Shown piece after piece: positions 4,175 through 35,659 of a stretch of 64,000 nt of DNA. Below the pieces are notes generated by a model. The model was not told the DNA's origin. It did no database searches and saw only the letters and a list, made by a program, of their open reading frames with translations. The translations under genes and the position numbers were made by a program. The stretch is from an uncultured virus (IMG/VR IMGVR_UViG_3300020411_003822). Taxonomy: Duplodnaviria; Heunggongvirae; Uroviricota; Caudoviricetes. The stretch lies in IMG/VR virus record IMGVR_UViG_3300020411_003822; one strand, written 5' to 3'. Position 1 is the stretch's first letter, and the number at the start of each line of letters is the position of its first letter.

Positions 4175-4178
4175 GATT

Positions 4179-4931: not shown

Positions 4932-4932
4932 G

Positions 4933-5802: not shown

Positions 5803-5868
5803 TTTCATGCGTTCCGATGGAACGGTGAAACGGGTTTATTTCAAGACATAAGCAGGCATCGCGTAAGC

Positions 5869-13352: not shown

Positions 13353-13706
13353 ATGCATACCCTATACAACGACAATATGGGATACCCAATAACCCCGTTC
13401 AATAATCTCATGGACAGGAGGATGGATACTTCAAGAATGTTTACCACTCGATTGACCAGCGATGAACTTCCAACCCGCACTGGTAATGGCCATCTGCATA
13501 GAATCGACTCTATCGATAAACACCTCCATGAATGGTTTCTCAGTCACCTAAACACTCATCATACAGATATTGATGGCCATCTTCACAATCATGAGTATTC
13601 ACAAAATATTAATCAAAACCCATCAAACGAACCTAATTGGCTTCCAGGATTGGTGGGGGCAGGCATTCTTATTGGATTTCTTGGCATTGCGTGGGGTGTG
13701 TTCTAA
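13353..13706 (+). CDS. His-rich small protein with C-terminal membrane anchor
   Basis: Many His residues in the middle; NQNPS then WLPGLVGAGILIGFLGIAWGVF. Confidence 0.75.
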   Translation: MHTLYNDNMGYPITPFNNLMDRRMDTSRMFTTRLTSDELPTRTGNGHLHRIDSIDKHLHEWFLSHLNTHHTDIDGHLHNHEYSQNINQNPSNEPNWLPGLVGAGILIGFLGIAWGVF

Positions 13707-17882: not shown

Positions 17883-20800
17883 ATGAAGGAACTACCCCCA
17901 ATGCCTGAGGTGGCTGCATGGATTCTCAAAAGCGAGATTAACAAATACCCAAACATCTCGGAAGCAGATGTCGCAAAGCGTTCCAAAAACAGAATCCTCA
18001 CACGCAGGGGAGGTAAAGGCCAATTTCTAACAACAAGTACACAATACTGGATGGCTAAACTTCAAGGTGGAGGCGGTGTTGGAAAAAACTCAACCTTGCC
18101 TCTCGGACACACAACAATGGATAAACAGCAAAGTTGGCGAGAAGGTTTTCACACAAGCGGAGATCCTGTTATCATCCCAGAACGAGATTATCCAGGTTTA
18201 GAATTAGAGGAAATTGCATCTCTATTTGCTGCACAGTCGATATTACTGTACCGCACCGAAACAAGGGGCAGTAACATTGGCCCCGACATTTCCGCTTTAG
18301 AAGACACCGAGCCCCTTACTGCCATCAACATAGGTGAAAATGCCAACCTCGACATTTTGACTGAGCAAAGGAAAAAAAGAGAATCATACGCAAACAATGT
18401 TCTTAGAAGCATAAAGCATTCAATACCTGAGAGTAAAGCAATCAGATTCAACAACTCAAGGGGGAGAATACATGGCTTACACGCAGTTAATTTTGGAGTT
18501 GGCACAGAATTAGTTGGACTCGGTCTTGAACTCCCTAAACCAAACGCACCAACCAACTTGGTAGCAATAAATGTCGAAAATGTAGAACTCACAAGTAGAA
18601 AGGCACTATTCCTCCAAACAGTAGAATTGTCTGAACTAATTGCAAGAGAAATGCAAACTGTAACATTGCCATGCACAAAAGGAAAGCAGACCATCATTTA
18701 CATTGGTGGTGGCGCATTAGGGGGCATAAGCTACAACGATGTCTATGACAAACTCGCACAATTAGGAAAATTGGTCGGTCACGCCGCACCAAACAGCGTC
18801 ATAGCGTTCAAAGACATAGCATTCAAAGAAATGGGAATCAAAGTATCCAGGGAATCTTTCACAAGAAGAAACGAAGATGTTCTACAATTACCTCTTTCTC
18901 TGGACATCTATCCAGCCAAAGAAAAAACATCAATGAATAGACCGTATCAAGGCTCTCAAGAATTAGGCATGGAGTTCGGACAATCCGGATTATCAATCAC
19001 GCCAATAGGAGATGCAACATTATTCGACCCCAATTTTGACGATCATCCCAGTATAGTCCAATACAGAATGAATCAACTGGTTCCAACAGTCATAGAATTC
19101 TTACGCATATCAAGGGTGGCCCCGCCAGCCCTCGATGTGGAGCCATACTTGGTTAAACCCAACAATCTATGGAAGAAGATGAGGGCAGAAAATGCCAAAA
19201 TCAAAGAAATCAAACAAGAGGAACTCGAATACGCAATAGATGCCTTCTCCATTGTAAAGGGCCACGAAGTAGCAATCGAATACGAAAACGGACAGGCAAC
19301 AATGCACATGAGCAACGAACTTTCACTTACAGGAATACCTCAAACCAATGACTTCGAACAATATTGTAGAGCAGAAGGAATCAAAACGATAGCAGTCAAG
19401 GGGATTCTTTGTCCAACAGACGGAAATTCCTATGGGTTAGTGGACGATGCACTGAAAATCGAAGAGATTACAACTGATCTAACAGAAACGCTCAATATTT
19501 TCATGCCTCTTGAAGTGCAGATATACAGGGTAATGGAGGGAGAATCATTCCAACAAATCAGAGGATTGGCCTACCCTCACGCAAAAATTGCCCGCAACAT
19601 TAGCACAGAATCTGGCGGAACAAATTTTGCTGAATTAATCAATGACGAACTCGACACAGGCTACGCTACCAGAATCCTCTTGGAACTACCCGACAATGTT
19701 GAAAAAAACCTCTATTCAGAACAAGTACTTGATGCCGCAATCATCGGATATGATCTCGATGGAAAAAATCCAAGCAACGGGATTATAGGAAAGGTAATCA
19801 TTGCTCTGTTGAGTCGAGAAAAAATCCGAGTTGAAAAAGGCGGAAAGATGCGAACAATAAATGCAGAAATATACAACCCAATCGGTGTAGTAGGCGCATT
19901 TGCGGGATTTGAAATAGACGCGAAAAGGCAGATTCTACAACATTTGATGAAGCATTCAACACACCCCGATTATGATGAAGGATACATCATGGTTAATCCA
20001 GAAGATGCAAACATGGTCGTTCGTGTAATGCATAAAGGAATACAAACGATGAAGCCTCAAAAAAAATACCGCTTGATTACAACAATGGATGCTTACAAAG
20101 AGAAAAAACCGACTTGGCGAACTACCGCAGACATGAATATCGAACGCCTTGATTATGGCGGCACTCCCGAAGTAGTCCCAGGAAATACCCAATTAGTAAG
20201 CATGGGCATTGATGACTTGCCCACATTAAGAGCCCCAACGATTACTGCTCTCGTATCAAAGGTAGATGGCTTCGAAGAACATTTCATAGAAAAGGAGGAC
20301 AAATACTCGTCCAGGTGGAGTTCACAATCAGAAAAATTGACCTTCAAAGCACCGATAGAACAACTAATCAAAAATGCCCCCTCAAGAGAATATCCAGGAG
20401 GAGACGCTCAATACATGATGGATGGAATCTTACTTGGTTCCCTAACTCACATCAGTGCAGATGGTAAGAAAAGGATCACACTTGCCAACTGGCAACAAAA
20501 ATACCCTGAATTAGCAGCAAGGCTGGAAGAAGCCAAAAACCGAGGTTGGACTGTAGTAATGCCAAACCCTCCATCATACCCAAACTCAGAAGCAGAATCA
20601 GAAATCGTTTTGGAAAAAATGAAGAATCCAGATTTGGAATACTTCAAGCTAACAGACAAATCTCCCTATCCCGCATTCAAAGAATACCTCGATGAACATA
20701 GTTTGGAACACGAAAAAGAAGCCTTAACGAAAATCATCAAAGACACACAAGCGTTCATAATGAAACAAAAAAATCATTACAATCGCCCAAGACCTGCTGA

Positions 20801-23800
20801 AGTAAACAGCAAGATTAAACCTGAAAAGTCAGAAACGGCGAACACACCAGCATACCCTTCGGGCCACGCATTTCAATCATATCTCATTGCAGATTTCCTT
20901 TCAGATCAATACCCTGAACACAGAAACGGATTCTACGCAATCGCAAAACGCATAGCAGACGCAAGAGTAAGCGTGGGTTTACATTATCCATCAGACAACG
21001 AAAAAGCAATTGATTTACTCAATGAATTGTTAGTGCCTCAACCTATCGAAAACCCGCCAACAGACAATTGGAGCGCACATAGGCAGCGTGTTCCGTGGGA
21101 CTTTGCACCGAATGCCTTTGGCAGAGGTTCTGCTTTCAGAACCTTCAAGATGGACGATAAGACCAGTAGGAGAAAAGCAATTCACATGGATGGGTGGAAC
21201 AGGCGTTATGACAAATACAAGGGTGTACAAGCCATTGCAGGCCGACTTCTAAATGGTAAGTGGCACATTCAATCCATTCGCGTACCTCGTAAATACAAAC
21301 TTCGAAGGACTCTGAGAGAAGTGAGACTTGATCGTAAGCGACCTCCGAAGTGGTACAAGGAACTGCATCCAGAAGCAAAGCCGTTTGGAACAAAAAAGAA
21401 CCCAATACCTGATGAGGATTTTCCCCCAACCATATTTCTCCAAAATCTCAAAATAACACCAGAACTTGACGAAGCCTTGCGTTTTTCCGCAGACCACGCC
21501 GTCCGTACCAATCGTGAAATGCTTGTAATCAAACCTGACTTATCTCTCTACTGGTTCCAACAATTACACCAACAAATGCTTGAAGATGGACAATTTAACC
21601 GTTTCTCGGCACAAACGCCAGAATCATATTTCCTCACAATTGCAGCGGAAGATTTGGAACATAATCTCCGGAATTCACCCAATATACGCGAAGCAATCAA
21701 AGAATTCACAGTAGCAAGCATCCCACCCCCTGAGAAGAATGCGCCACTGTACGAAAGAACAGGCAGAAAAATCCCATCAACATTGTATCACGGTACAAGC
21801 GCAAGAGCAGTTGAAGCAATTTACAATTCAGGCGAAATAGACCCCAGATTCAGCCATTTTATGGGGGAGGGAATATATCTCACGCCAAGTCCAAAACTTG
21901 CAAGTGCATACGCAAAAAAAGCAGCAGGTTATTGGAAGGAAAATGCCCGTGTCCTCCAAGTAGATATGGATTCTCTTGAAAAAGATGTTAAGCATCTTGT
22001 TGTCAGGTACAGCAAAGCGAAACACACATCAGTATCGGACGAACCCAGCGACATCTACACAGTTGATTCCTCAATCCCTCTACAGTATATCGAAAGAGTA
22101 TGGTCGCCAACTGGAGAAATCAACCCGCTCCTTGAAAACCCAATCATGCCTCGCAACGCAATCGCCGCAATGGACGAGGGTTGGACAGGATACCCCACAT
22201 GGGCAATATCTCCTACAATCTCGATGAGCAACCTGCAGGGAAATCCCCCCAAAGAACACCGGATTAGTCACACAGTAAAAGGCAAAGAGTTAGGATTTTT
22301 GACATATTTCAAATACAAAAACAATAACTTCATCGAGGAGTTTTCAGTCAGCCCCCGACATCGAGACAAGGGAATCGGAAAGAAACTACTGAATGAATAC
22401 ATCAAAAAATACCCAAAGACCACGACAATTCTGTTGGCCGGAGCCCAACCTTCATGGTTTTGGAAGAGTGGCTTAGATCAAAAGCAATTAGAGGGGTTTT
22501 ATGAGAAATACGGATTTGTTAAAATTGGAGAAATAGATGGAGAAGGGCCCTTCTTCCAACGAAACCCCCCATTGAAAATCATAACCTCAGACATCATCAC
22601 AATTTCTGGACCCAGCGGTGCAGGTAAATCTGCGATAGCGAAGGGACTCAAGAAGAAAATTGGTCGTTCAGCAAGAGTTGTGCCTTCTTACATGACTCGA
22701 AAGAGAAGACCGAAAGAAGAAGAAGGAAAGGATGGCATATTCATCACCAAGAAGAAATTCAAAGAGATGATTAAACGAGGCAATTTCACAACATCAAATG
22801 GAACAGATCTATGGGTGCTGCAGAACAACGGCCACTATTACGGCAGAAGGGCAGAGGATTTCGAAAGGTCGGGTGTAGCAATTGTTGATGTAAGCTTCAA
22901 GGGATTGGAATTGATGCGAGAAGCCTTCCCAGGTAAGACCTATTCTGTACTTGTAAAAACAAGAATGGGTGAAGAACGAAGAAGAAAAATATTACAAAAA
23001 AGAGGCATTCACACAGACGATGAGATAGAACGCAGGGTCAAAATCGGAACAATGATGATGCAAAAAGAGAACTACGAGAAATACAACTTCGATTTCTTTG
23101 CCGCCAATAGATTAGGAGAATTGGAAAAGAATGTAGCAATGATCGCAAGCGAGTTCCGTAAATCTCAGGCCAAAGATAATCCAGATACTTGTTGCATAAT
23201 TTGTGGTTCATGCGAAGATCCTTGCGACTGTAAAGAAAATCCAACGAAACAACTGCCTGGGCTATTCACGGACAAAGTGAAGGTTACGGCCAATGAATTC
23301 CACAGAAGTTTCAATCATCTGCCATTCGTAAACCCACCATTCATAGAATTAAGGGAAGCATATCATACAACGCCCGATGAAAATGTCGCCTCAATCATGG
23401 AAAAAGGCATTTTGATGACAAAAATAGGAAAGGTAGAACCTGCCGTTTACCTCACTTACAATATGCAACAAGCCGAGAGGATGAGGGCTTTCAGAGAACG
23501 GAGACTCGGAACCCCCCACACAATATTGAAAGTAGATCTTAGGAACTTTTCCAACAAAGATGTCGGAGCGGAACCGTGGGAAAGCAGAGATTTCCCCGAC
23601 AAAAATCAGAGGATGGCCTACATGATGGCAACGACCAACCAATTAATGATTACAAAAAACATCTCACCAGAATACCTCACAATAATGCCTAAGACAGATT
23701 CACAAGACAGACTTGATGCCCTTGAATTTGTTGAATCACGCCATTGGCCCGATGATTCGCCCGAAGAAAAGAAAAAGAGATTTGATGCAAGGAACAAACC

Positions 23801-26800
23801 CAACCCTCCTCGTAAGCCTACCGTAACATTCTCCAAAAGCCCAAAGTCAGACAAAAAGATGGTTGCAGTATTCACCTACAATGATGGTCGGACAAAGACC
23901 ACCCATTTCGGTGCAAAGGGAATGTCAGATTACACAATACACAAAGACCCAAAGAGGAAAAAACGGTATTTAGACCGACACCGAAAGAACGAAAATTGGG
24001 ACGACTACACCAGTGCAGGTTCATTGTCAAGATACATTTTATGGGGGGAACCTACCTTGAAGGCCAGCATTGAATCATATCTGAAAAGATTTGGATTGAA
24101 AGAAACCAAGAAAAACCCAATGGCACCAGGATACCAATCATTCAGTTGGATAAGTCAAGACTGGAGAGCCGTTAAGGTAAACAACAAAGGTGAAATCGAT
24201 TATTCAGAAAAGTGTGGAGCAGAAGGGACACAAACAAAATCAGGGAAACCACGATTATGTTTGCCTCGCAAAGTGATCCAAACATTGTTGAGAACAGAAT
24301 CAGGAAAGGAGATATTGCGACAACAAGCAAGAAAGAAAGCGAGAGCCAAGAAAGGAGAGAGAGTCCCCTGGCATCCTCGAATCAAAAAACTCCACGCCAA
24401 ATTAGAGAAAGAAACAGTTCAAGACAATCCTCCAGTGTTTGAATCACCAACAGCAATGGACATGGGCATCCAATACGGAGACATAACAGGGCCAAGTCCA
24501 GAAGGCAAAGAAGGTAGTTCAAAGTGGCACAACCAACTCCTTGATGGAAAAATGTCGGATCTGCCTTTGAAGGCGGGAGCATGGAAGAAGCGTTCATTCA
24601 AGGCTGAAATGGGAATGCATTCACTCGAACATGAGGATGGCACACGCACAATCGGTTTCGTTGAGAAATTCGCAGATGATACTCGCCCATACACAGTTTC
24701 CCTGAAAATTGACGGGGACAGTAGCTTGGTTCACTTTGATGGTAAACAATCAGTTGTGTGGAACAAGCGTGGTCGCTGGCGCAGAAACTTCCACATCACC
24801 GACCAAATAACCACTTCGCTGAAAAAGAAAGGCGTGAAATCAGCACAGATTTTGGGTGAGTTGTATGCAGTAGACGAAGACGGGCTGGCCCTTTCCCTTA
24901 ACGAAATATCAAGCATCATCGTATCACCCAAGACTCAAGAACGACAGGACTCAATCAGGTTTGCTGGATTCGACCTTCTCGAACTAAACGGGAAGGACTT
25001 CTCTGAAACCCCATACGAAGAAAGAGTCTCCAAATTGATTGGGCTTCTTGAAGGCGAAGACATCATGATTGTACCGTTCTACCAAAGCAAAGGCGGGATG
25101 AAAGAGTTAGAACAGGCGTGGGAAGAAGGAATGAAAGAACCCAACTTCGAAGGCCTTGTCCTTAGATTTGAGGGCGAACCTAAATCATACAAAATCAAAA
25201 TGAAAGGGACTGCTGACCTTGCAGTATTCGGATTCTATCGTGGAAAAACAACAGAGACAGGCAGAGACAAAGACAGAGTAGGCGGAGGTGTACTTGCTTG
25301 GATGCTCCCTAACGGTGATTTCGTTTACGCAGGTAGATCTGTAATAGGGAAATCTCTCAAAGAGAAAGACGAACTGTTAGAATTACTATTGAAGGATTCA
25401 GTAGATGCGCCTTTGATTAAATTAAGAGGGAGAACGGTTGATAATTCAATCACCCATGATTCCAAAGGGAAAGGAACAATCACAATGGTTGCTCCCAAGA
25501 TGGTCGGAGAGTTCATGTACAGAGGAATCAACTGGGGAGAGAAACCTGTATTCAGATTCACAAAAGGAAAAGTAGAGGTTGTGGGGAAGATGAGAGCCCC
25601 TACAATGTTCCAAGCCTCATTCAAGAGATGGAGAGAAGACAAAGGCGTCAATCCTCACGATCTGCGCATGGAACAAATCCCTGTTGAGGGAACTGGCAAA
25701 TGGGGTCACATCAAAACCAACCCAGCAAAAAGCGTATGGGGTGAAGAAATCGAGATGCCAAAGAAATTGTACCATCTCACACTGGAAGAAAACCTACCAA
25801 GCATAATGGAAAACGGATTGGTGGCTAATCACGGGCCACTCACACGGGCATTAAAGAGACAACTCTACAAAGTTGCAATAGAACGAGGTTTGATTGAGGC
25901 GGACTTAGATTTTGAAGAATACATCAACTCATTCACCCCAAGAATTTTCATGACTTCCGAAATCGAAGATGCTTTATTTTGGAGAAGTAAAATGCCTAAA
26001 CATGATAATTTCGCCTTGATTGAAATAACAGTACCTGAAACACTCGAACTCAGATTGAATGGCTTGGAATGGACAACAACAGAAACAATAGCCCCAGGAA
26101 ATCTCAAAGTTGTCAACCCAGCAAAAGGCGTCACATTTGAGATTAAGCCCCATCCTGATTTAGAAGACGACCCATCGATAACTTCGTCTTTCTTAGTCGG
26201 AGAATTGGATGGCGAAGAAATCATCGGTGTAATCTTCAATGATGAGGGTGACAAATACCACATCGACCACATACATATCCAACGGAAACACAGGGGAAAA
26301 GGATACTCAAAAGCGACACTAAATTGGTTCAAATCAAAGGGAAAACCAATTGAACTGTACGCTCCAATCCAATCAGGAAAAGCACCCTGGTCAAAGGAGC
26401 GAGGCCGAAGAGACTGGTACAAGGGAATGTATGAAAGACAAGGTTTTGTGGAAATCAACGCAGACAGTGGATTAATGCGTTGGGAACCCGATGTGAAAGG
26501 GAACCCATCCATGAGAATGAAGCCAGTCACTGAAAAAAAATGGAATGCAAACTCCAGTTATCCTTTTGATAATCGAATGTTCGAAATACCAAACATCATG
26601 GTTTGGCCGAAATGGCACACAATCAAGGATCTAAGAGATAATCCAGACCACATCTTCTTGTTTGGAGACAACCAAGCCAGGAAGGGGAAAAAGGGCCAAG
26701 CACAAATCCGTGGTATGAAAAATGCAATGGGGGTTAGAACAAAGAGAATCCCATCCACTACGCCCAGTTCGTTTTTGGCAGACAAAAATTATCAATCTAA

Positions 26801-27008
26801 CTTGAAGATGATGAAAGAGGATTTCCTAATGGCAATTGAAGCTGTCCCAAAAGGAGGAACCTTAGTGTTCCCGAAAGACGGTTTAGGTACAGGATTGGCA
26901 GAATTGCCTCAAAGGGCTCCCAAGACATACCTATGGCTGAAGGAGTTTAGCGAAATGCTCACATCATTAGACGATACCCCACTGAACAAGGCGGAGGTGC
27001 AAATATGA
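17883..27008 (+). CDS. Giant NP-linked polyvalent polyprotein (3041 aa)
   Basis: About 890-aa unknown N-terminus, then more than 10 modules, nearly all opened by NP/NPP; domains listed separately. Confidence 0.92.
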   Translation: MKELPPMPEVAAWILKSEINKYPNISEADVAKRSKNRILTRRGGKGQFLTTSTQYWMAKLQGGGGVGKNSTLPLGHTTMDKQQSWREGFHTSGDPVIIPERDYPGLELEEIASLFAAQSILLYRTETRGSNIGPDISALEDTEPLTAINIGENANLDILTEQRKKRESYANNVLRSIKHSIPESKAIRFNNSRGRIHGLHAVNFGVGTELVGLGLELPKPNAPTNLVAINVENVELTSRKALFLQTVELSELIAREMQTVTLPCTKGKQTIIYIGGGALGGISYNDVYDKLAQLGKLVGHAAPNSVIAFKDIAFKEMGIKVSRESFTRRNEDVLQLPLSLDIYPAKEKTSMNRPYQGSQELGMEFGQSGLSITPIGDATLFDPNFDDHPSIVQYRMNQLVPTVIEFLRISRVAPPALDVEPYLVKPNNLWKKMRAENAKIKEIKQEELEYAIDAFSIVKGHEVAIEYENGQATMHMSNELSLTGIPQTNDFEQYCRAEGIKTIAVKGILCPTDGNSYGLVDDALKIEEITTDLTETLNIFMPLEVQIYRVMEGESFQQIRGLAYPHAKIARNISTESGGTNFAELINDELDTGYATRILLELPDNVEKNLYSEQVLDAAIIGYDLDGKNPSNGIIGKVIIALLSREKIRVEKGGKMRTINAEIYNPIGVVGAFAGFEIDAKRQILQHLMKHSTHPDYDEGYIMVNPEDANMVVRVMHKGIQTMKPQKKYRLITTMDAYKEKKPTWRTTADMNIERLDYGGTPEVVPGNTQLVSMGIDDLPTLRAPTITALVSKVDGFEEHFIEKEDKYSSRWSSQSEKLTFKAPIEQLIKNAPSREYPGGDAQYMMDGILLGSLTHISADGKKRITLANWQQKYPELAARLEEAKNRGWTVVMPNPPSYPNSEAESEIVLEKMKNPDLEYFKLTDKSPYPAFKEYLDEHSLEHEKEALTKIIKDTQAFIMKQKNHYNRPRPAEVNSKIKPEKSETANTPAYPSGHAFQSYLIADFLSDQYPEHRNGFYAIAKRIADARVSVGLHYPSDNEKAIDLLNELLVPQPIENPPTDNWSAHRQRVPWDFAPNAFGRGSAFRTFKMDDKTSRRKAIHMDGWNRRYDKYKGVQAIAGRLLNGKWHIQSIRVPRKYKLRRTLREVRLDRKRPPKWYKELHPEAKPFGTKKNPIPDEDFPPTIFLQNLKITPELDEALRFSADHAVRTNREMLVIKPDLSLYWFQQLHQQMLEDGQFNRFSAQTPESYFLTIAAEDLEHNLRNSPNIREAIKEFTVASIPPPEKNAPLYERTGRKIPSTLYHGTSARAVEAIYNSGEIDPRFSHFMGEGIYLTPSPKLASAYAKKAAGYWKENARVLQVDMDSLEKDVKHLVVRYSKAKHTSVSDEPSDIYTVDSSIPLQYIERVWSPTGEINPLLENPIMPRNAIAAMDEGWTGYPTWAISPTISMSNLQGNPPKEHRISHTVKGKELGFLTYFKYKNNNFIEEFSVSPRHRDKGIGKKLLNEYIKKYPKTTTILLAGAQPSWFWKSGLDQKQLEGFYEKYGFVKIGEIDGEGPFFQRNPPLKIITSDIITISGPSGAGKSAIAKGLKKKIGRSARVVPSYMTRKRRPKEEEGKDGIFITKKKFKEMIKRGNFTTSNGTDLWVLQNNGHYYGRRAEDFERSGVAIVDVSFKGLELMREAFPGKTYSVLVKTRMGEERRRKILQKRGIHTDDEIERRVKIGTMMMQKENYEKYNFDFFAANRLGELEKNVAMIASEFRKSQAKDNPDTCCIICGSCEDPCDCKENPTKQLPGLFTDKVKVTANEFHRSFNHLPFVNPPFIELREAYHTTPDENVASIMEKGILMTKIGKVEPAVYLTYNMQQAERMRAFRERRLGTPHTILKVDLRNFSNKDVGAEPWESRDFPDKNQRMAYMMATTNQLMITKNISPEYLTIMPKTDSQDRLDALEFVESRHWPDDSPEEKKKRFDARNKPNPPRKPTVTFSKSPKSDKKMVAVFTYNDGRTKTTHFGAKGMSDYTIHKDPKRKKRYLDRHRKNENWDDYTSAGSLSRYILWGEPTLKASIESYLKRFGLKETKKNPMAPGYQSFSWISQDWRAVKVNNKGEIDYSEKCGAEGTQTKSGKPRLCLPRKVIQTLLRTESGKEILRQQARKKARAKKGERVPWHPRIKKLHAKLEKETVQDNPPVFESPTAMDMGIQYGDITGPSPEGKEGSSKWHNQLLDGKMSDLPLKAGAWKKRSFKAEMGMHSLEHEDGTRTIGFVEKFADDTRPYTVSLKIDGDSSLVHFDGKQSVVWNKRGRWRRNFHITDQITTSLKKKGVKSAQILGELYAVDEDGLALSLNEISSIIVSPKTQERQDSIRFAGFDLLELNGKDFSETPYEERVSKLIGLLEGEDIMIVPFYQSKGGMKELEQAWEEGMKEPNFEGLVLRFEGEPKSYKIKMKGTADLAVFGFYRGKTTETGRDKDRVGGGVLAWMLPNGDFVYAGRSVIGKSLKEKDELLELLLKDSVDAPLIKLRGRTVDNSITHDSKGKGTITMVAPKMVGEFMYRGINWGEKPVFRFTKGKVEVVGKMRAPTMFQASFKRWREDKGVNPHDLRMEQIPVEGTGKWGHIKTNPAKSVWGEEIEMPKKLYHLTLEENLPSIMENGLVANHGPLTRALKRQLYKVAIERGLIEADLDFEEYINSFTPRIFMTSEIEDALFWRSKMPKHDNFALIEITVPETLELRLNGLEWTTTETIAPGNLKVVNPAKGVTFEIKPHPDLEDDPSITSSFLVGELDGEEIIGVIFNDEGDKYHIDHIHIQRKHRGKGYSKATLNWFKSKGKPIELYAPIQSGKAPWSKERGRRDWYKGMYERQGFVEINADSGLMRWEPDVKGNPSMRMKPVTEKKWNANSSYPFDNRMFEIPNIMVWPKWHTIKDLRDNPDHIFLFGDNQARKGKKGQAQIRGMKNAMGVRTKRIPSTTPSSFLADKNYQSNLKMMKEDFLMAIEAVPKGGTLVFPKDGLGTGLAELPQRAPKTYLWLKEFSEMLTSLDDTPLNKAEVQI
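20574..21030 (+). other. Domain: PAP2 / acid phosphatase-haloperoxidase fold
   Basis: KxxxxRxRP, PAYPSGH and RVSVGLHYPSD are the three PAP2 motifs. Confidence 0.9.
21780..22110 (+). other. Domain: ADP-ribosyltransferase-like 1
   Basis: LYHGT...GEGIYLT...ASAYA...VLQVD (H-Y class ART pattern). Confidence 0.8.
22251..22560 (+). other. Domain: GNAT acetyltransferase 1
   Basis: VSPRHRDKGIGKKLL (motif A) and FYEKYGF. Confidence 0.88.
22590..23165 (+). other. gmk: Domain: guanylate kinase
   Basis: ISGPSGAGKS, SYMTRKRRPKEEEGKDGIF, GHYYG. Confidence 0.85.
23340..23690 (+). other. Domain: ADP-ribosyltransferase-like 2 (Tpt1/KptA/DarT-like start)
   Basis: YHTTPDENVASIMEKGI...VYLT...ILKVD...NISPEYL. 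Confidence 0.7.
23810..24100 (+). other. Domain: basic domain resembling a family common in nucleocytoviruses (DUF5754-like, from memory)
   Basis: HFGAKGMSDYTIHKDPKRKKRYLDRH...W...SAGSLSRYILW. Confidence 0.7.
24435..25710 (+). other. lig: Domain: ATP-dependent DNA ligase (adenylation + OB domains)
   Basis: Motif I SLKIDG (Lys at 24705), ILGEL, FAGFDLL, EGLVLR, YKIK; C-terminal F..WREDK. Confidence 0.88.
25755..26110 (+). other. Domain: ADP-ribosyltransferase-like 3
   Basis: LYHLTLEENLPSIMENGL...IFMT...LIEI...EW..TETIAP; resembles domain 2. Confidence 0.7.
26130..26490 (+). other. Domain: GNAT acetyltransferase 2
   Basis: IQRKHRGKGYSKATL and MYERQGF. Confidence 0.8.
26620..26970 (+). other. 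Domain: phage-type FGDN/GQA domain, possibly macrodomain-related
   Basis: FLFGDN..RKGKKGQAQIR...NAMGVRTK...VFPKDGLGTGLA. Confidence 0.5.
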
Positions 27009-30000
27009 GTTTATGGAACCGGCACATCAAGAATCCGACACAACCGCTTAGAACTGGAAGAATACCAAATCAAAACACCGCTCAACGAGCATCACCGAGA
27101 GTTTTGGGCTGGAGAGTAGAAGACAGAGATTCATTTGTCGCAGCATTCGCATTCAGCACAGTCGAAAACGCCAATTCTGAAAAACCCGAAATCGAAGAAT
27201 GGGTGAAAAGGAACCTTGAACCAAGATTCGGCAAAGGCTTAGAAGTAATACTCAAGGCCAAAACACTAATCGTCATTAGACCAGGAACAGATGTGACTAA
27301 ACTTGAAACTACAAAGGACGGCTCTCCTTACTACAAAGGAGAACTCAGGCAAACTCGATCATCTGATGAAGGAGAAACGAGATTTGTCGAAGATTTACTT
27401 ACTGGTAAAGAAGTCCGTGAAAATCCCCCTACTGATGTAATCATTACCGTACCTCACGCCAAAGATGACAAAGTCGATGATGGCCACGATACCGATTGGA
27501 ACGCAGAAAAGGCCTCCCATGAACTTGCTAATGCACTATTGGAAAAGGGAATAGATCCAATCGTAATGATTGGAGAAGATAATCGGGACATATGGGACCT
27601 TAACAGAGAACATTCGAGCGGAAGGCCTTTTCACATTGCATTAAACAAAAATCTGAAAAACGCAGATATTCTGCTCGACATTCATTCATACCCAGCAGAA
27701 TACGAAGGCTGGGGAGACTACGATGTAGTGTTGTTTGCATTCGGCCCTTTTCACACCGAAGAAGACAACAACGACACGATGGAACTTGCAAAATGGATTA
27801 CAGAAGAATGTCCCGATACCAAAGTTCTCATCGACCAAGCCGACATGATACGCAATTACATTCAGCACAAAGGAATGATTAGAGACATTGAATCACATTT
27901 GATTGAAGTTGTCGAAGGAAAGGATCCGAAACCCGCAATGAAAGCTGTAGCAAATTACATCACAGGAACCAAAAGAAACATACCAACCGTTTTACCAGAA
28001 GGTGCGGCATACCAACAATTCACACTGAAACTAAATCTCAAAGAGAAAACAACATTGCTGGAACTGCTTGAAATCGAAATGGAAGATTTAGGATTCCCTC
28101 CCTTCAAACACAGTTATTTCGGTTCAACCTCAATAGTTGAGAGAACATGGTTCAAACTCCCAACAGGATTTCCTCAAGAGCCAACACTAATGTTTGCAAG
28201 GAATACTGGAGTCGTTTACCTGTATCGAGCGCAATTCCTCAACAACAAGGAAGTTCAATCAATCTACGAAATGATAAATGAGGCAGTTGAATCTCAACCA
28301 GAACCAAATCCCAAAGACGACAATAAAGAAAGCAAACTGAACAGAAAATCCTCTGAAAGCGAAATCAAAGAAGCATTGAAGAAGAAAAAAATAGATCCTC
28401 CTGTTAATGCAAAAGGAAAATTGCAGGTTTCGAAAGCACTACAATTAGCCGCAGGTTATGTGGACAAGGATTCATCCAACGAAGACATTGAAGCCGAACT
28501 GAAAAAAAGGAAGAAGAAAATCCCGAAAAAATCCGATGGAAAGGGCGGTGAAAAACTCGATAGGGCCAAAGCCCTTGAAATGGTTGGGGCAAAAGAATCA
28601 GTTGAAGCAATGCCAAGTTTACCATCATTCGGCAGCAGTAGCAAAAACGAAAGGATGAAATTGTCCACATCTGTAACCAGAATGGTTGTATCTCAATTAC
28701 TTCCAGGTGCACACACAATCAAAGAAGAAGGCAAAGGCAAAGGCGGCCAAGTAGATGCAGCAAAAGTCAGAAACCTCGATGCATTCAAGAAATTACCAAG
28801 AGCAGAGAAGAACAAATTGCTTCCGAAAGGAAAAGCACCAAACTGGGGTGAAATCAAAAAGAAGTTCGGAGACAAAGACATTTACAAAAACCCACCCAAA
28901 CTCTGCAATACTCCTAACAAGAAAAAGTACGAAACCCAGGCAGATGCAAGAATAGCAGCAAACTACCGAATGCGATTAGGGACCGCTCCCCACCTATCAA
29001 CCTACAAATGCAAGGGTTGCGGCTTCTGGCACCTTACCTCAACAAAGACCAACCCTCCGGTCACAGTAGATCCAGAGCAAGGAAAGTTCTCTTTAGACAT
29101 CACAGGCAGATTCGTCAAGAACCCCTCAATCGTAGTCACGGCTAATGGGGAAGCTTCAAAATTGAATATAGGAGAATTAGCGGAGCCCCAAGAAGGAGAA
29201 TATGGAAGGGAACAAGGACGCTTGGTAAGGGTGAACATGTTTAGACAAAAAGCAGGTTTCAAAATCAAGGGCCAGAAAAAGCAACCAAAATACATCATCT
29301 CAATAGAAACAGCAGGCAAACACTTCTATGCTGAAAGAGAAGTCAAAATACATGGATTCGCTGAATTGAAACACTTCCCCGACAAGAAAAGCGAACCACG
29401 GCTACGCGTGGAGACAAGAGGCAAACACATCACAGTTTGGCCAACAGTAGGAGATGGAAAGGGGTGGCTAAAGCAAGCACCAGAAAAAACAGTAATTGTC
29501 CGAGGAAAAGAACACCCTCTTTACGACAACATACACATCTACCAAAAAGAAGGAGATAAGTACGCTACAGAATCATTAGGCCTCTCTGACCTGATAGAAA
29601 ACCCAACATTGCAAAAAACCCTGTATGGTGAGGCGTTTAGAGATGAACTCACCGAAAAAGAAGAAAAAATAGAGGCATTGAAGGTTGCGGGACACATTCT
29701 AATGGACCTGCCCAAATGGATGAAGGATAAAGAACTCCAAAAATTAGGTGCAATGCGTGTTTCTAAACCAGAAAATCCGCTAAACAATAACTGGCTAATT
29801 CCTCCTGAGGCAGAACCCATAATCGAAGGAATGATAGAAAAGAAGAGAGAAGCAATTCTCGAAGAAGCCCGAAAAAAAGCAGAAGGTACAGCACGACTTG
29901 ACGAGTTCAAAAGAAACTCACCTGCATACGCAGAACAATATGTGAAAGATCACGAACTGATGACTCCCAAAGAAGAAAAGAAATTTACCAAAATCAAACT

Positions 30001-30616
30001 CAAAGGAAAAATTGGTTCACCTGAGTTCTTTGAACAGATCGCAAGCAAAGTCCAAGTTTTCGGTGAAGGTCAAGGCTGGGTTAGAGATGGCTACCTGTAT
30101 TGGAAGAAAGGACCAGGGCATCTGAATTATGTCGAGGTAGATGGACACATGCTTGAAGGCGGCACAGCATGGATGCACACTCACCCTGCAGCATGGGAAC
30201 CATCACAAAGCAGTCCTGACGATTTCAAAGTGATGCATGGACTATTCATCAACCACGGAGTTAGAGACTTCTTCACGATTATAGCAGATCGTATTGACTG
30301 GTTCCGAGCGAAGAAGAAGGACAGAATACCATTAGAAGAAATGCTCGAAGTGATTGACGGCAAAAGCATCGTACAACACATGGAAGAAGACATCGACAGA
30401 GAGTTCCACATTGCTGAAGAGAAGTTCCAAAGAAAAATGGGCGATAAACCATACCTCACATCTGAACAAACTCGGTACATCACAAACCATTTCAATAAGG
30501 TGATTGATGAGTTCGAAATGTCCTACAAAGCATACGCCTTATCGCCTCAACAGGTAAGAGGAAGAATAGTATCAAATCCACCTCCCACAGTCGCCATATC
30601 TGGATTCTTCAAGTGA
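27005..30616 (+). CDS. Second NP-linked polyprotein (1203 aa): Zn amidohydrolase-like, Zn finger and JAB/MPN-like domains
   Basis: ATGA overlap; NP at 27032, 27422, 28307, 28889, 29051, 29120, 29600, 29774, 30575. Confidence 0.9.
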   Translation: MSLWNRHIKNPTQPLRTGRIPNQNTAQRASPRVLGWRVEDRDSFVAAFAFSTVENANSEKPEIEEWVKRNLEPRFGKGLEVILKAKTLIVIRPGTDVTKLETTKDGSPYYKGELRQTRSSDEGETRFVEDLLTGKEVRENPPTDVIITVPHAKDDKVDDGHDTDWNAEKASHELANALLEKGIDPIVMIGEDNRDIWDLNREHSSGRPFHIALNKNLKNADILLDIHSYPAEYEGWGDYDVVLFAFGPFHTEEDNNDTMELAKWITEECPDTKVLIDQADMIRNYIQHKGMIRDIESHLIEVVEGKDPKPAMKAVANYITGTKRNIPTVLPEGAAYQQFTLKLNLKEKTTLLELLEIEMEDLGFPPFKHSYFGSTSIVERTWFKLPTGFPQEPTLMFARNTGVVYLYRAQFLNNKEVQSIYEMINEAVESQPEPNPKDDNKESKLNRKSSESEIKEALKKKKIDPPVNAKGKLQVSKALQLAAGYVDKDSSNEDIEAELKKRKKKIPKKSDGKGGEKLDRAKALEMVGAKESVEAMPSLPSFGSSSKNERMKLSTSVTRMVVSQLLPGAHTIKEEGKGKGGQVDAAKVRNLDAFKKLPRAEKNKLLPKGKAPNWGEIKKKFGDKDIYKNPPKLCNTPNKKKYETQADARIAANYRMRLGTAPHLSTYKCKGCGFWHLTSTKTNPPVTVDPEQGKFSLDITGRFVKNPSIVVTANGEASKLNIGELAEPQEGEYGREQGRLVRVNMFRQKAGFKIKGQKKQPKYIISIETAGKHFYAEREVKIHGFAELKHFPDKKSEPRLRVETRGKHITVWPTVGDGKGWLKQAPEKTVIVRGKEHPLYDNIHIYQKEGDKYATESLGLSDLIENPTLQKTLYGEAFRDELTEKEEKIEALKVAGHILMDLPKWMKDKELQKLGAMRVSKPENPLNNNWLIPPEAEPIIEGMIEKKREAILEEARKKAEGTARLDEFKRNSPAYAEQYVKDHELMTPKEEKKFTKIKLKGKIGSPEFFEQIASKVQVFGEGQGWVRDGYLYWKKGPGHLNYVEVDGHMLEGGTAWMHTHPAAWEPSQSSPDDFKVMHGLFINHGVRDFFTIIADRIDWFRAKKKDRIPLEEMLEVIDGKSIVQHMEEDIDREFHIAEEKFQRKMGDKPYLTSEQTRYITNHFNKVIDEFEMSYKAYALSPQQVRGRIVSNPPPTVAISGFFK
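27430..27965 (+). other. Domain: N-formylglutamate amidohydrolase-like (Zn exopeptidase fold)
   Basis: IITVPHA...D...DLNR...LLDIHSYP...IE. Confidence 0.65.
28898..29050 (+). other. Domain: small Zn finger bounded by two NPP motifs
   Basis: C...KKKY....A...YKCKGCGFWHLTS between KNPP (28889) and TNPP (29051). Confidence 0.7.
30040..30310 (+). other. Domain: JAB/MPN-like metallopeptidase
   Basis: E upstream, then WMHTHP-x8-SPDD (HxH...SxxD with slightly long spacing). Confidence 0.6.
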
Positions 30617-30651: not shown

Positions 30652-32145
30652 ATGGATGAAGACTCCCGAATCATCAGAGGAAGAGATGCTCAAAGAATGA
30701 TTGTCGATACAGCATGGAATATGGCTGAAGCTGTTCGAGCAACTCTTGGTCCGAGAGGAATGGACATGATGCTTGTTGATAGGATGGGCAACCAAGTATT
30801 GACGAACGATGGCGCAACAATCTTGAAGTCACTTGAAACCAGAGATCCTATCGCTAAAATTATCTCGGAAGTAGCCAAGTCACAGGAACAAACAGCATTT
30901 GACGGTACAACAACCTGCATCATCTTGATTGGGGAATTACTACGCAGAGCAGACGAATTGGTTAATCGAGGACTTCATCCAAATGCAATTATCAAAGGAT
31001 ACAGAATAGGACTTGCCCAAGCACTTGAGTCGGCAAAGAAGAACGCTATTCCTATGGAGCCAATAGATGCGGCCTACAAGGTTGCACACACTGCAATGAC
31101 TGGAAAAAGTGCCGAGGACTTCGTTGAGAACCTTGCCAACCTTTGTGCCAATGCCGCAGCAATCGCAGAACCGTCCGAAATCAAACTGCTCACTTTCACA
31201 GGCCAACCTCAAGACGCAGAATTAATCGAAGGAGTTGTAATCCTGAAAGGTGCGGTAGCAAAGGGCATGCCCGAAGAGATTGATGGAAATGTGCTACTTC
31301 TCGAAGCAGAGTTCTCTCCTCCAATCGCAAATATCACTCTAACAGATCCACAAAAAATAGCAGAGATAACGCAAATACAAGAAATGTTCTTGAAAAACAG
31401 GTTTGAGAAAATCTCTGAACTAAATGTGAAAGCAATATTTTGCCAAAAAGGAATGGACAGTAGGGTTTCACAGTATCTTCGTAAAAACGGGATTCTTGCA
31501 TTCAAAAATATCCGCAGGTCAGATATGCATAGAATTAGCGCAGCAACAGGGGCAGAACCAATTACAGACATTGGCGACATCAACGAAGAAGACCTGGGCA
31601 AAGGAAAAGTAAGCACCCACAAATCTGCTAACGCCTATGCAGTAGTAGAAGGGGCGACAAGTAAAGCCGCCACCATTCTGATTCCAGCACCTACAGAGCA
31701 AGCCGCAGAAGAATTCCAAAGAGCCCTCGAAGATGCAGTCGGTGTGTCCTACCTTTGCGTCAAAGAACCATATGTCGTGGATGGCGCAGGGTCAATCCAA
31801 GCCAAGATGGCTAAACACATCAAAGAATCAAAACCCGAAGAGAACCCAAAGGTTGAAGCGGCTCGACTCGCATTTGGTGAGGCTTTGATGATCATACCTC
31901 AAACTCTTGCCGAATCAGCAGGGATGGACATTATGGATGCGACAGTAAAAATGGCTAACAATCCTGAACTCGGTGTCGATGTGAACGGAATGACTCTAAG
32001 AGAAATGGAAGTGTTCGAACCTCTTGCAGTTGTGAGTTCCGCAATGTCAAGTGCAGTTGAAAATGGTGTATCTCTCTTACGCACGCACAGTATAGTGATG
32101 GCTAAACCCATACAAGAGATATTTGGAGAAAGAGCAAACGAATAG
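30652..32145 (+). CDS. Group II chaperonin (thermosome-like subunit)
   Basis: TLGPRGMDMML, TNDGATIL, DGTTT, FCQKGMD, RALEDA, IPQTLAESAG, EPLAV. Confidence 0.95.
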   Translation: MDEDSRIIRGRDAQRMIVDTAWNMAEAVRATLGPRGMDMMLVDRMGNQVLTNDGATILKSLETRDPIAKIISEVAKSQEQTAFDGTTTCIILIGELLRRADELVNRGLHPNAIIKGYRIGLAQALESAKKNAIPMEPIDAAYKVAHTAMTGKSAEDFVENLANLCANAAAIAEPSEIKLLTFTGQPQDAELIEGVVILKGAVAKGMPEEIDGNVLLLEAEFSPPIANITLTDPQKIAEITQIQEMFLKNRFEKISELNVKAIFCQKGMDSRVSQYLRKNGILAFKNIRRSDMHRISAATGAEPITDIGDINEEDLGKGKVSTHKSANAYAVVEGATSKAATILIPAPTEQAAEEFQRALEDAVGVSYLCVKEPYVVDGAGSIQAKMAKHIKESKPEENPKVEAARLAFGEALMIIPQTLAESAGMDIMDATVKMANNPELGVDVNGMTLREMEVFEPLAVVSSAMSSAVENGVSLLRTHSIVMAKPIQEIFGERANE

Positions 32146-32156
32146 GGTGATTATTG

Positions 32157-32282
32157 ATGGAAACAAAAATGCCGCACTACCTGTTAAACAAAGAACACCT
32201 TTGCAGTTGTAATAGAAATCCTTGTCCTCGCCCTGGAAGGCAAGCATGCATCAGAAGAACAAGAAGAAACTTATCTTCCTAA
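32157..32282 (+). CDS. Possible small Cys-rich protein (41 aa)
   Basis: GGGTGA RBS; METKMPHYLLNKEHLCSCNRNPCPRPGRQAC; below the ORF-track cut-off. Confidence 0.35.
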   Translation: METKMPHYLLNKEHLCSCNRNPCPRPGRQACIRRTRRNLSS

Positions 32283-33014
32283 GATGTCGGAAAGAGTTGC
32301 ATCTTTGCTCGGCAAAGGCAATGGAGTATGGAATCTCAATCTATCGTCACCTGCAATCAGATAAGCGAAGTGGTATTTGTTATCCCTGAGCCACGGTAAA
32401 TACTTCTCAATCTCTTCGAGCCGCTGACTTTCAAGATAAGAGCGATTCTCGCGCATGAAGAAACAGATCGTATTATTGCATTGAGAATAAACTTGAGAGT
32501 TGATGTTCTGTATTCTCTGACCTAATGCAACCATGATTATATTCTTGCCAAGTCCAGTAGTAGCTAATCTCTGTAAACCACTATGATTCGCTTGTTTCGC
32601 AGAATACAATTGAATCTCATCTATGAAAACAAGCATCGGCCTATTGGAATGTCCTTTACGAACTGGCTTATCAGATTTCAAGGAAAACAAAAAGTCAATC
32701 ATTTTCGTTAGTGCCTCTTTCCGACTGTCATCCCCAGGTGGCCGATAGATAATATGGCTGGCCTTCATCATTACATGGAATCTCAATTCAGACAGATTTC
32801 TGGCAACAACTCCATGAGGGAGAATAGAATTATCGTGCTTTGTATCTACAAAAATGTGTACAGGCTTTTTTCTCAAATCAAAAATCGGCTGTAAGAATAA
32901 TGTAAGGGCAGCAGTCGTTTTCCCATACTGGGTCTGCCCAACAATCACAGTATGGCCTGTTGAGAGTGCCTTCGTAAGTGGCTTGATGGATCTAATTAAG
33001 GGAGGATTCTCCAA
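32271..33014 (-). CDS. FtsK/HerA-superfamily ATPase, probable genome-packaging ATPase (A32/P9-like)
   Basis: Walker A GQTQYGKT, FVDTK, Walker B LVFIDEIQ, then G..K.I.MVALGQR..SQC; TTG at 33014 after GAGGTGA preferred (ORF open to 33104). Confidence 0.8.
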   Translation of the reverse strand: MENPPLIRSIKPLTKALSTGHTVIVGQTQYGKTTAALTLFLQPIFDLRKKPVHIFVDTKHDNSILPHGVVARNLSELRFHVMMKASHIIYRPPGDDSRKEALTKMIDFLFSLKSDKPVRKGHSNRPMLVFIDEIQLYSAKQANHSGLQRLATTGLGKNIIMVALGQRIQNINSQVYSQCNNTICFFMRENRSYLESQRLEEIEKYLPWLRDNKYHFAYLIAGDDRLRFHTPLPLPSKDATLSDILGR

Positions 33015-33018
33015 AGAA

Positions 33019-33249
33019 TCACCTCTTCTTCTTCTTTGACTCTCTGGACCTTCGGCCATTTCCGGACAATTTCTTCCGAATATCGTGTGGAGATTCTCCA
33101 ACAACCATCTCCAGGTAAGTCACAATCAGATTACTCATACTTCGATTTTCACTATCGGCACGAGACCGAATCAACTCTAACAAAGGCGCAGGCAACCGAA
33201 GAGTAAGAGTTTCCGACTCAACTCTTTCTGCCTTCTTTGCCTTCGCCAT
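33019..33249 (-). CDS. Ribbon-helix-helix (Arc/CopG-like) regulator
   Basis: TLTLRLPAPLLELIRSRADSENRSMSNLIVTYL; ATG 33249 is 30 nt from a promoter-motif variant. Confidence 0.8.
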   Translation of the reverse strand: MAKAKKAERVESETLTLRLPAPLLELIRSRADSENRSMSNLIVTYLEMVVGESPHDIRKKLSGNGRRSRESKKKKR

Positions 33250-33262
33250 GCCATAACCGATG

Positions 33263-33279
33263 CTTCTCAACCCTTTGGA
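33263..33279 (-). promoter_or_regulatory. Promoter motif variant TCCAAAGGGTTGAGAAG
   Basis: 3 mismatches to TTCAAACGGCTGAGA, 30 nt upstream of ATG 33249. Confidence 0.55.
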
Positions 33280-33286
33280 CTTTCCC

Positions 33287-33339
33287 CGCAAACAAGACGA
33301 ACACAAGCGAACACAAGTTAAATTGGTTGCAAGTGCAAC
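33287..33339. promoter_or_regulatory. Operator-like array: CGCAAACAAG, CGAACACAAG x2, then palindrome GTTGCA-AG-TGCAAC
   Basis: Direct repeats at 33287, 33298, 33308; inverted repeat 33326-33339; lies between divergent genes. Confidence 0.6.
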
Positions 33340-33351
33340 GATTTCAATTTG

Positions 33352-33360
33352 ATTATATGG
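33352..33360 (+). promoter_or_regulatory. TATA-like box ATTATATGG
   Basis: About 31 nt before ATG 33384; identical 9-mer at 37587. Confidence 0.6.
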
Positions 33361-33383
33361 AACTGCATATTCGGCTTGATACA

Positions 33384-35487: not shown

Positions 35488-35496
35488 GGTCATATC

Positions 35497-35655
35497 ATGC
35501 AGTTGCAGAAGATTTTGAGAAACCCTCACTGCTACACAAACAATGGTGGTCTTGGACAAACAAGCAATATCCCTCCAGGTTACTTGGTTGGCGGATTAGG
35601 AATGGGCGGATTGATGGTAACTGGTCTGATAGCACTCCTGATTCTCAGGAAGTGA
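35497..35655 (+). CDS. Small membrane protein (52 aa) with RNP and GGLG motifs
   Basis: MQLQKILRNPHCYTNNGGLGQTSNIPPGYLVGGLGMGGLMVTGLIALLILRK; fills an operon gap; GAGGT RBS. Confidence 0.75.
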   Translation: MQLQKILRNPHCYTNNGGLGQTSNIPPGYLVGGLGMGGLMVTGLIALLILRK

Positions 35656-35659
35656 AATC

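Follow-up and report, generated by a model that had tools for sequence, protein, structure and literature searches.

The stretch analyzed here, 64,000 nucleotides of the uncultured virus IMG/VR IMGVR_UViG_3300020411_003822 (Caudoviricetes) and called the window below, carries two giant open reading frames (ORFs) on its plus strand, the stop codon of the first overlapping the start codon of the second (27005..27008). Polyprotein 1 (P0001, 3041 aa, 17883..27008) is built of a conserved head followed by about 17 modules framed by the dipeptide Asn-Pro (NP), and polyprotein 2 (P0002, 1203 aa, 27005..30616) has no Pfam match above noise. An earlier note, made from the sequence alone, had described both as strings of unrelated enzymes punctuated by NP or NPP and had proposed that the motif marks cleavage sites or a packaging tag. 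Below, the joints that carry the dipeptide are called seams. Proteins of relatives that are named individually are P0004, P0005, P0006, P0022, P0023, P0027, P0071 and P0072, whereas P0003 is the window ORF upstream of polyprotein 1. Two relatives are complete genomes with direct terminal repeats (127,570 and 128,784 bases), and the 127.6-kb one is referred to as G001.

Six Pfam families score above their curated cut-offs in polyprotein 1, which bears out the claim of unrelated enzymes in one polypeptide: PAP2 (aa 963-1038), GNAT (aa 1456-1554), guanylate kinase (aa 1572-1742), DUF5754 (aa 1981-2033), ATP-dependent DNA ligase (aa 2268-2440) and DUF7831 (aa 2909-3021). The domain labels given earlier stood for PAP2, GNAT, guanylate kinase, DUF5754 and ligase, whereas the three ADP-ribosyltransferases (ARTs) remained below cut-off. 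The three ART/Tpt1-like calls were PTS_2-RNA (Tpt1) at 3e-4, PARP at 6e-3 and DUF7002 at 5e-3, and a PHROG 2'-phosphotransferase match at 2e-4 is among these weak calls.

The head (aa 1-830, 17883..20372) ends at a variant seam, 'KNAP' (nt 20373). It is followed by a 63-aa 'PGG..YMMDGIL' module (20379..20567), which is bounded by NPP in relatives that lack the head, by the PAP2 phosphatase module (aa 896-1057, 20568..21053), which has an internal NP at aa 915 that is DP in P0004, and by a basic module of 116 aa (aa 1058-1173, 21054..21401) with NP at most 2 aa from its start in 11/11 occurrences. The next segment (21402..22124) holds module X (aa 1174-1286), a second 'KNAP' variant seam (nt 21738) and an ART/Tpt1-like module (aa 1289-1414) that has only weak hidden Markov model (HMM) matches. 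A mini-module of 35 aa (22140..22244) has NP exactly at both ends in all eight of its occurrences. The GNAT module (aa 1455-1561) and a guanylate-kinase-like P-loop module (aa 1562-1766) follow, each framed by NPP or NP (22245..23180), and then come five units that are all NP-framed (23181..24428): a Cys-rich 20-mer, a 31-mer, a weakly matched ART/2'-phosphotransferase-like module, DUF5754 and a module of 104 aa. The ATP-dependent DNA ligase module (aa 2183-2613, 24429..25721) contains an internal NP at aa 2590 that is TP, KP or NA in homologues. The protein closes with another weakly matched ART-like module, a second GNAT and the C-terminal DUF7831 module (together 25722..27005), in which an internal NP at aa 2920 is NR or YP in homologues.

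Polyprotein 2 begins with a leader of 10 aa and NP, continues with a module of 130 aa that is separated by NPP from an FGase-like module (aa 141-325), then passes through NIP to a module of 110 aa, through NP to a Lys-rich stretch and through NPP to a Zn ribbon with NPP behind it, and after further modules runs through NSP, a JAMM-like module and NPP into a short tail. Its conserved core consists of the FGase-like module, the Zn ribbon, a 160-aa module and the JAMM-like module. The FGase-like module is predicted to be a second conserved metallohydrolase, the best Pfam FGase match being 8.7e-4 among the aligned homologues of polyprotein 2 and 5.2e-5 in that of G001. A profile of polyprotein 2 run against the PDB sequences gave nothing below E 0.19.

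All 16 NP positions listed earlier for the first ORF (20565, 21051, 21399, 22122, 22137, 22242, 22563, 23178, 23238, 23331, 23802, 24114, 24426, 25719, 26115 and 26502) and all six for the second (27422, 28307, 28889, 29051, 29600 and 30575) are AAY-CCN codon pairs. Nine more NPs were found beyond that list, at 19767, 19875 and 19995 in the head, at 20625, 25650 and 26640 inside modules, and at 27032, 29120 and 29774 in the second ORF. The view that the constraint acts on the peptide and not on the DNA held up: AAT and AAC, and all four CCN codons, are used side by side, just as elsewhere in the ORFs. Because the codons are mixed and no flanking bases are shared, the signal lies in the peptide, and a DNA-level recombination signal at the seams is ruled out on the same grounds.

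Polyprotein 1 contains 22 NPs against 8.7 expected from its composition (2000 shuffles: mean 8.7, sd 2.8, maximum 18). Polyprotein 2 contains 9 against 3.3, an excess that is weaker taken alone given a shuffle maximum of 10, and the upstream ORF P0003 contains 4 against 2.5. Within aa 831-3041 of polyprotein 1, NP is the most over-represented dipeptide (19 vs 6.4), and the same is true of polyprotein 2; the one exception ranked above NP is CC, the expectation of which is near zero. In neither the head nor P0003 does NP rank first. The tripeptide NPP occurs seven times in polyprotein 1 and four times in polyprotein 2, and of 44 other ORFs of the window three have a single copy.

The relation of NP to module borders was assessed by three tests (Pfam envelopes, ends of BLAST high-scoring segment pairs (HSPs) and traced modules), in each of which the borders were set without using NP. 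Within 42 Pfam envelopes from 15 family members, homologues that are not independent of one another, there were 6 NPs in 5,524 residues (1.1 per 1000), five of the six being one and the same DUF7831 site, whereas the 30 aa on either side of the envelopes held 39 NPs in 2,355 residues (16.6 per 1000, where composition predicts 2.6). The flanks are thus about 15-fold denser in NP than the envelope interiors, and the claim that NP stands at domain boundaries passed this check. Among 23 relatives, 141 of 491 clusters of HSP ends lay within 6 aa of an NP (null 35.9 +/- 5.9, maximum 57 in 1000 trials). When P0005 was compared with P0006, 9 of 10 internal HSP ends were no more than 5 aa away from an NP, the remaining one being 9 aa off; for polyprotein 1 and P0004 the count was 6 of 8, one of the two other ends lying at 'KNAP' (aa 1286) and one (aa 2802) in a low-identity extension. 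Depletion of NP inside modules is visible solely in the pooled envelope count (6 vs about 14 predicted); in polyprotein 1 alone the 6 internal NPs are not clearly below the 8.7 predicted for the whole protein.

In traced modules NP stays 0-3 aa from the ends even where identity has dropped to 26-46%, with neighbors that differ from protein to protein. The FGase-like module of polyprotein 2 and its 26%-identical copy in P0027 both have NP at start and end, and the 116-aa basic module ends at NP in 9 of its 11 occurrences, the two other proteins stopping shortly after. When the proteins are divided between N and P, the resulting pieces align over their full length with parts of other proteins, where their order and neighbors differ. 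P0005 and P0006, for example, share a 203-aa module with P0004, and they have a DUF5824 module of 165 aa at different places. Relatives thus gain, drop and reorder modules exactly at NP, as expected of the plug-in units that the earlier note had envisaged. The 116-aa basic module (21054..21401) is 96-98% identical in P0004, P0005, P0006, P0022 and P0023, whereas their heads, where comparable, are only about 60% identical to that of polyprotein 1. Such a module, 97% identical beside heads at 60%, points to recent exchange, or else to very strong constraint on its sequence. Units of exchange are framed by NP under selection at the peptide level, and the frame is present at nearly every joint.

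Not every NP is a seam. Six in polyprotein 1 (aa 629, 665, 705, 915, 2590 and 2920) lie inside conserved blocks, and in homologues these are DP, RP, TP, YP, LP or NR. In alignments that cross a seam, NP is unchanged. Alignment of homologues also supports the variants NIP, NSP and NAP as border motifs: the NIP of polyprotein 2 (aa 325) is aligned to NPP in 8 of 13 homologues and to NIP in 5, its NSP (aa 971) to NPS, NPT or NPG, and NAP stands at two borders of polyprotein 1 (aa 831 and aa 1286). A logo of 144 de-duplicated contexts gave weak flanks, with K/R at -2 (41%), L/P/V/T at -3 and Pro at +2 (39%). K/R is also enriched at -1, and apart from the Pro positions +2 to +9 are unconserved. As the second Pro moves with the downstream module (the ligase module always starts PVF(E/D)), the seam proper is N-P. 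The seams fall in stretches of the structural models with low predicted local distance difference test (pLDDT) scores, and these stretches are probably disordered.

The head of polyprotein 1 is conserved as one block in the 10 relatives aligned, at 19-48% identity. Its AlphaFold (AF2) model (pLDDT 72) has a primase-polymerase (AEP/LigD-Pol) fold at aa 143-416 (VIA: 3pky, Z 12.4, root-mean-square deviation (rmsd) 4.0, 212 aa) and the nucleotidyltransferase (NTase) plus OB fold of DNA ligases at aa 426-794 (VIA: 2cfm, Z 13.8 over 279 aa; Foldseek: DNA ligases at E 1e-10). Neither the border between these two folds nor the NTase/OB border of the true ligase module carries a seam, indicating that NP frames exchange units and not every domain border. 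Since the near-invariant columns of the head include no Lys, its ligase-like part may be inactive, and going by the model the head may be a LigD-like pair that serves as a non-catalytic DNA-end binder. The head was also considered as a protease, and this was ruled out by the primase-polymerase plus ligase folds of the model. No close relatives of the head were found in a viral contig collection (queried with the single protein) or in a phage collection.

The ends of polyprotein 2 are framed as well. Of its 26 homologues of 900-1700 aa, 18 were read for their terminal frames. NP lies within the first 15 residues in 14 of these 18, preceded by a short leader such as M-S-L-W-N-R-H-I-K-N-P-T, and 11 of the 18 end in NP or NPP plus 3-16 aa, with a shared ..G-[FL]-[FY] ending. 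The tail of polyprotein 2 after its last NPP is 10-12 aa (30578..30613) and ends ..GFFK, where homologues have GLY or GFY. In P0071 and P0072 the first module of polyprotein 2 is internal, and an upstream module plus NP takes the place of the leader. A leader of 4-10 residues and a tail of about 10 make no sense as a spacer or a folding pause, which leaves an endopeptidase site or a motif that flanks each unit. The tail recalls the C-terminal peptide of adenovirus pVI, which reportedly activates the viral protease.

A further frame is found in a separate gene downstream. The ORF 33237..34772 (+) encodes a protamine-like protein of Lys/Arg/Ala repeats with a hydrophobic C-terminus (33357..34772, start codon inferred). 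It contains a single NP, which is part of an NPP and stands where a short hydrophobic leader meets the basic region, 'MVESNLILVNPP' being followed directly by 'RKARK', and a leader of the form L-[ILV]-L-[IV]-N-P-P-[KR] precedes the basic region in 4/4 relatives (the window, G001, L002 and L003). The protein is likely a genome-condensing core protein. Its LVNPP leader resembles the propeptide of adenovirus pVII and itself looks like a propeptide, and the protein would be a second class of putative seam substrate. The repeat units read 'KRSAAAKKAAATRKRNA'.

The reading that we favor is that the seams are putative endoproteolytic cleavage sites for maturation, and on the sequence evidence we regard its prospects as evenly balanced. 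The two residues would be the core of the signal, with weak preferences on the flanks (K/R at -2, a hydrophobic residue or Pro at -3). By cutting, each module would be set free as a protein of its own, and short leaders would be trimmed, among them the one on the DNA-condensing core protein. Viral polyprotein proteases typically read signals with a dipeptide core and weak flanks (Q-G, GG-X, AG-X). The terminal frames and the core-protein leader fit proteolytic maturation. Packaging of the products in the virion and their delivery are suggested by analogy with other viruses and by the gene neighborhood, the core-like protein and small membrane proteins lying downstream of the polyproteins.

The candidate protease would be the conserved JAMM/MPN+-like module at the end of the second ORF (aa 972-1191, 29918..30577). 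It carries the zinc-site motif E..HxH..SxxD, with E1021, H1058, H1060, S1070 and D1073 invariant in 15/15 aligned homologues (E97, H134, H136, S146 and D149 of alignment A2), the spacer being 2 residues longer than in H-x-H-x(7)-S, which we take to be the usual pattern. For its AF2 model (pLDDT 75) the first fold matches were BRCC36, Rpn11, archaeal JAMM1, CSN5 and AMSH, 49 of the 50 VIA rows listed were JAMM/MPN proteins by entry title, and an Atlas lead to Prok-JAB scored 0.86. From these motif and fold matches it is plausible that the module is a zinc protease, and it is the only candidate seen. An HExxH scan of the window ORFs outside the polyproteins found none. Reading by eye picked out an archaemetzincin-like HExxH module in P0004 and P0005, which is not present in the window, and G001 has an LRAT/NlpC-P60-like ORF.

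Several observations weigh against proteolytic maturation at the seams or against the JAMM-like module as its agent. Six NPs lie in folded parts of polyprotein 1, so NP alone cannot suffice. One seam after the ligase module is NG in P0005, where P0006 has NP, and the upstream contexts are heterogeneous (KKNP, LVNPP, HIKNP). Foldseek placed MPN proteins at the top for the JAMM-like module, with weak values of E 9e-3 to 0.4, and the best VIA rows (6fno_B, Z 5.9, rmsd 3.7, 110 aa; 5lda_A, Z 5.7) are below the caution line of 8. The Pfam JAB models gave no match to 15 family members at E <= 0.1. Known JAMM enzymes cut after the Gly-Gly of ubiquitin-like proteins, and Pro at P1' is disliked by most proteases. 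Pfam and PHROGs searches revealed no known protease family in the window, nor in G001 (138 ORFs of 90 aa or longer searched with Pfam at E <= 1e-4, and 97 of these with PHROGs at E <= 1e-3).

A broader proposal builds on cleavage at the seams: a wide lineage of uncultured prokaryotic viruses would use Asn-Pro as a 'cut-here' code for a protease of new specificity (possibly of JAMM type and departed from ubiquitin-like substrates), which would separate the enzymes of freely shuffled polyproteins and mature the protamine-like, genome-condensing protein. We put this forward tentatively, as something short of an even chance.

That NP stays uncut and acts either as a short linear motif for docking (to a chaperone or a partner protein, or in packaging) or as a structural stop insulating the modules is unlikely in our judgment. 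The framing of each module, terminal leader and tail included, would be equally expected of such a motif, a thermosome gene adjoins the polyproteins in both the window and G001, and NP-based docking motifs such as NPF and NPxY are used in eukaryotes. However, two residues with almost no conservation around them are poorly suited to specific binding, and the LVNPP leader of the core protein looks like a propeptide. Insulation alone would leave the invariant Asn unexplained, as many linkers would do, and the head joins its domains without NP.

Self-cleavage would dispense with a protease: the Asn side chain would attack its own carbonyl, a succinimide would form and the Asn-Pro bond would break, as in asparagine peptide lyases, perhaps sped by basic residues or by the virion interior. 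The invariant residue is indeed Asn followed by Pro, K/R is enriched at -2 and -1, and the HMM searches found no protease. Asn-Pro autocleavage is documented for reovirus mu1, a virion protein, and, in the part of the FlhB literature available to us, for FlhB-type NPTH proteins. These precedents, which the earlier note had invoked, do not transfer directly. FlhB/YscU and mu1 each break a single site in a folded domain with fixed local structure (the NPTH sits in a turn), whereas here there are dozens of sites in seams of low pLDDT, probably disordered linkers, where only the Pro at 39% is kept after NP and TH is lacking. Free peptides need weeks to months to break at Asn-Pro, the variants NIP, NSP and NAP lose the Pro that favors such chemistry, and internal NPs persist. 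Taken together these points make self-cleavage improbable.

Still less credence is given to a programmed translational pause, in which slow Asn-Pro and Pro-Pro bonds would let each module fold before the next emerges. Formation of X-Pro bonds is slow and depends on aIF5A/EF-P, the seams lie between folding units, 39% of them are NPP and a chaperonin gene is adjacent, but a seam 4-10 residues from the N-terminus or 10 before the stop codon cannot aid folding, the head domains and the ligase domains are joined without seams, and the second Pro belongs to the downstream module and not to the seam. Least probable of all, and very improbable in itself, is that NP is a functionless leftover of cassette recombination or of common descent of the linkers: module exchange does occur exactly at NP, but varied codons and unconserved flanking DNA leave no crossover signal at the level of the DNA, NP is retained at 26-46% identity where neighboring residues have changed, and NP is depleted within domains (in the pooled count given above).

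Proteolytic maturation at the seams has several parallels. In protease-processed viral polyproteins a short conserved motif marks every junction between products, and here such a motif, NP, stands at the joints of the modules. Adenovirus (AVP acting on pVII, pVI and others), African swine fever virus (ASFV; pp220 and pp62) and poxviruses (core proteins) process virion precursors at GG-X or AG-X signals by clan CE cysteine proteases. The likeness lies in a two-residue core signal with weak flanks and in the processing of polyproteins together with a DNA-condensing core protein that has a short N-terminal propeptide, to which adenovirus adds the release of a short C-terminal peptide; in contrast, their clan CE proteases were not detected here, in searches not aimed at those families by name. 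In T4, gp21 trims internal proteins and Alt, and phiKZ processes its inner body, at L/I-x-E or S/A/G-x-E motifs, the cargo being encoded by separate genes. Head-packaged enzymes that include an ADP-ribosyltransferase are there trimmed at a short motif and injected, whereas no prohead protease was found in G001 by Pfam or PHROGs.

The 2A 'StopGo' peptides, D(V/I)ExNPGP, also contain Asn-Pro and separate the products of one ORF. As described in the portions of that literature available, they need NPG-P and a conserved upstream peptide, whereas neither is present at the seams (logo of 144 contexts). PPEP-1 of Clostridioides difficile cuts between VNP and PVP, needs Pro at P1' and prefers Val over Lys at P3 (PMC10413326, available in part). 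It is a true protease with Asn-Pro-Pro in its site and many sites per substrate, but only 39% of the seams are NPP, the seams favor K/R near P3, and no M34 match was found in the window or in G001. Polyvalent proteins of phages and conjugative elements are the closest in architecture, and for these embedded peptidases have been proposed to release the domains, the hub peptidase being a zincin-like MPTase (Iyer, Burroughs, Anand, de Souza, Aravind 2017, PMC5512222, accessible in part). Like them, the polyproteins here combine many unrelated enzymatic domains, ARTs and GNATs included, in one viral polypeptide of mosaic architecture. The accessible part of that paper describes 2-15 unrelated, mostly enzymatic domains in proteins that travel with the nucleic acid, packaged in the virion or transferred, and polyprotein 1 has six Pfam families, its viral context coming from the complete relatives with direct terminal repeats. 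The same part names no junction motif, whereas here a fixed dipeptide frames every cassette, and the zincin-like MPTase is not in the window. Literature searches for an NP seam or an Asn-Pro polyprotein code in phages or archaeal viruses returned nothing relevant, and the novelty claimed earlier thus stands in that no published description was found, although it holds only against the literature searched.

If the seams are cut, the protease would have a specificity for which no description was found, and the seams would give a rule for reading the giant 'hypothetical' ORFs of an ocean virus group as lists of separate proteins. Cutting would also show how cassettes of counter-defense or repair enzymes can be swapped without breakage of the frame, and would offer a possible compact tag-and-release format for multi-enzyme constructs. 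Were the wider 'cut-here' code true, it would be a prokaryote-virus counterpart of adenovirus and ASFV maturation and would let cargo genes be plugged in as units. Should the seams stay uncut, an invariant dipeptide around every exchange unit would still be an unexplained rule of protein architecture.

The window derives from an uncultured marine double-stranded DNA virus with a genome of about 128-135 kb, probably a virus of archaea. G001 and the window are syntenic at 24-71% amino-acid identity (most genes 30-55%), the polyproteins, the thermosome and the core-like protein included. Directly after the polyproteins, in the same order in G001, lies an archaeal-type thermosome subunit (30652..32145, +), assigned by TIGR02339 at 370 bits against 96 or less for GroEL and by PDB group II chaperonins at 1e-85; it may be a folding helper for the polyproteins. 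The host is likely archaeal. In G001 an RNA polymerase Rpb1 domain 5-like protein (L004:8480-11011:+, 4e-20) and a weakly matched TFIIB-like protein (L007:1114-2205:+, 8e-5) are hints of archaeal-type transcription of its own. Other genes of G001 encode Mom, methyltransferases and RusA, and one of its proteins resembles the nuclease of the terminase large subunit (phrog_2666, 3e-12). This match, to the nuclease part only, is to G001 86118..86876, the ortholog of window 32271..33104 (-).

No terminase ATPase part, portal or capsid protein was recognized. A capsid-fold search (Atlas) with the ORF 40341..42125 gave weak leads to phage cement/decoration proteins, all under 0.9, and PF04451, the capsid family of nucleocytoplasmic large DNA viruses (NCLDV), had no match in the records of three relatives, a result that is uninformative because control genomes were equally silent. 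The replication block of magroviruses (DNA polymerase B, MCM, clamp, clamp loader and primase) had no Pfam match among 138 ORFs of G001 at E <= 1e-4. The thermosome is the only feature in common with magroviruses (Philosof et al. 2017, PMC5434244), whose replication block is of archaeal type. Apart from the thermosome, a serine recombinase, glycosyltransferases, YbjQ and DUF7689, searches of the window ORFs against Pfam (E <= 1), PHROGs and NCBIfam put a name to almost nothing.

Some other products of the window deserve mention. Many small proteins (3884..7248, 13353..13706, 34801..36160 and 38907..39257, +) have a hydrophobic, Gly/Ala-rich C-terminal segment, as if membrane-anchored, which points to a membrane in the virion or in its assembly. 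An ORF truncated at the edge of the window (1..786, +) has tandem 'FNNGGNNANGV' repeats at its start. A protein of 1243 aa (9616..13347, +) has a YbjQ-like domain (aa 931-1012), then NPP at aa 1027, and a further NP 17 residues ahead of its Cys-rich C-terminus; it may be a third seam-bearing protein. Lastly, a protein of 257 aa (39552..40325, +) with the N-terminus 'MARVNFGR..RGYNPL' is 56% identical to its counterpart in G001, in which the NP at residue 16 is kept.

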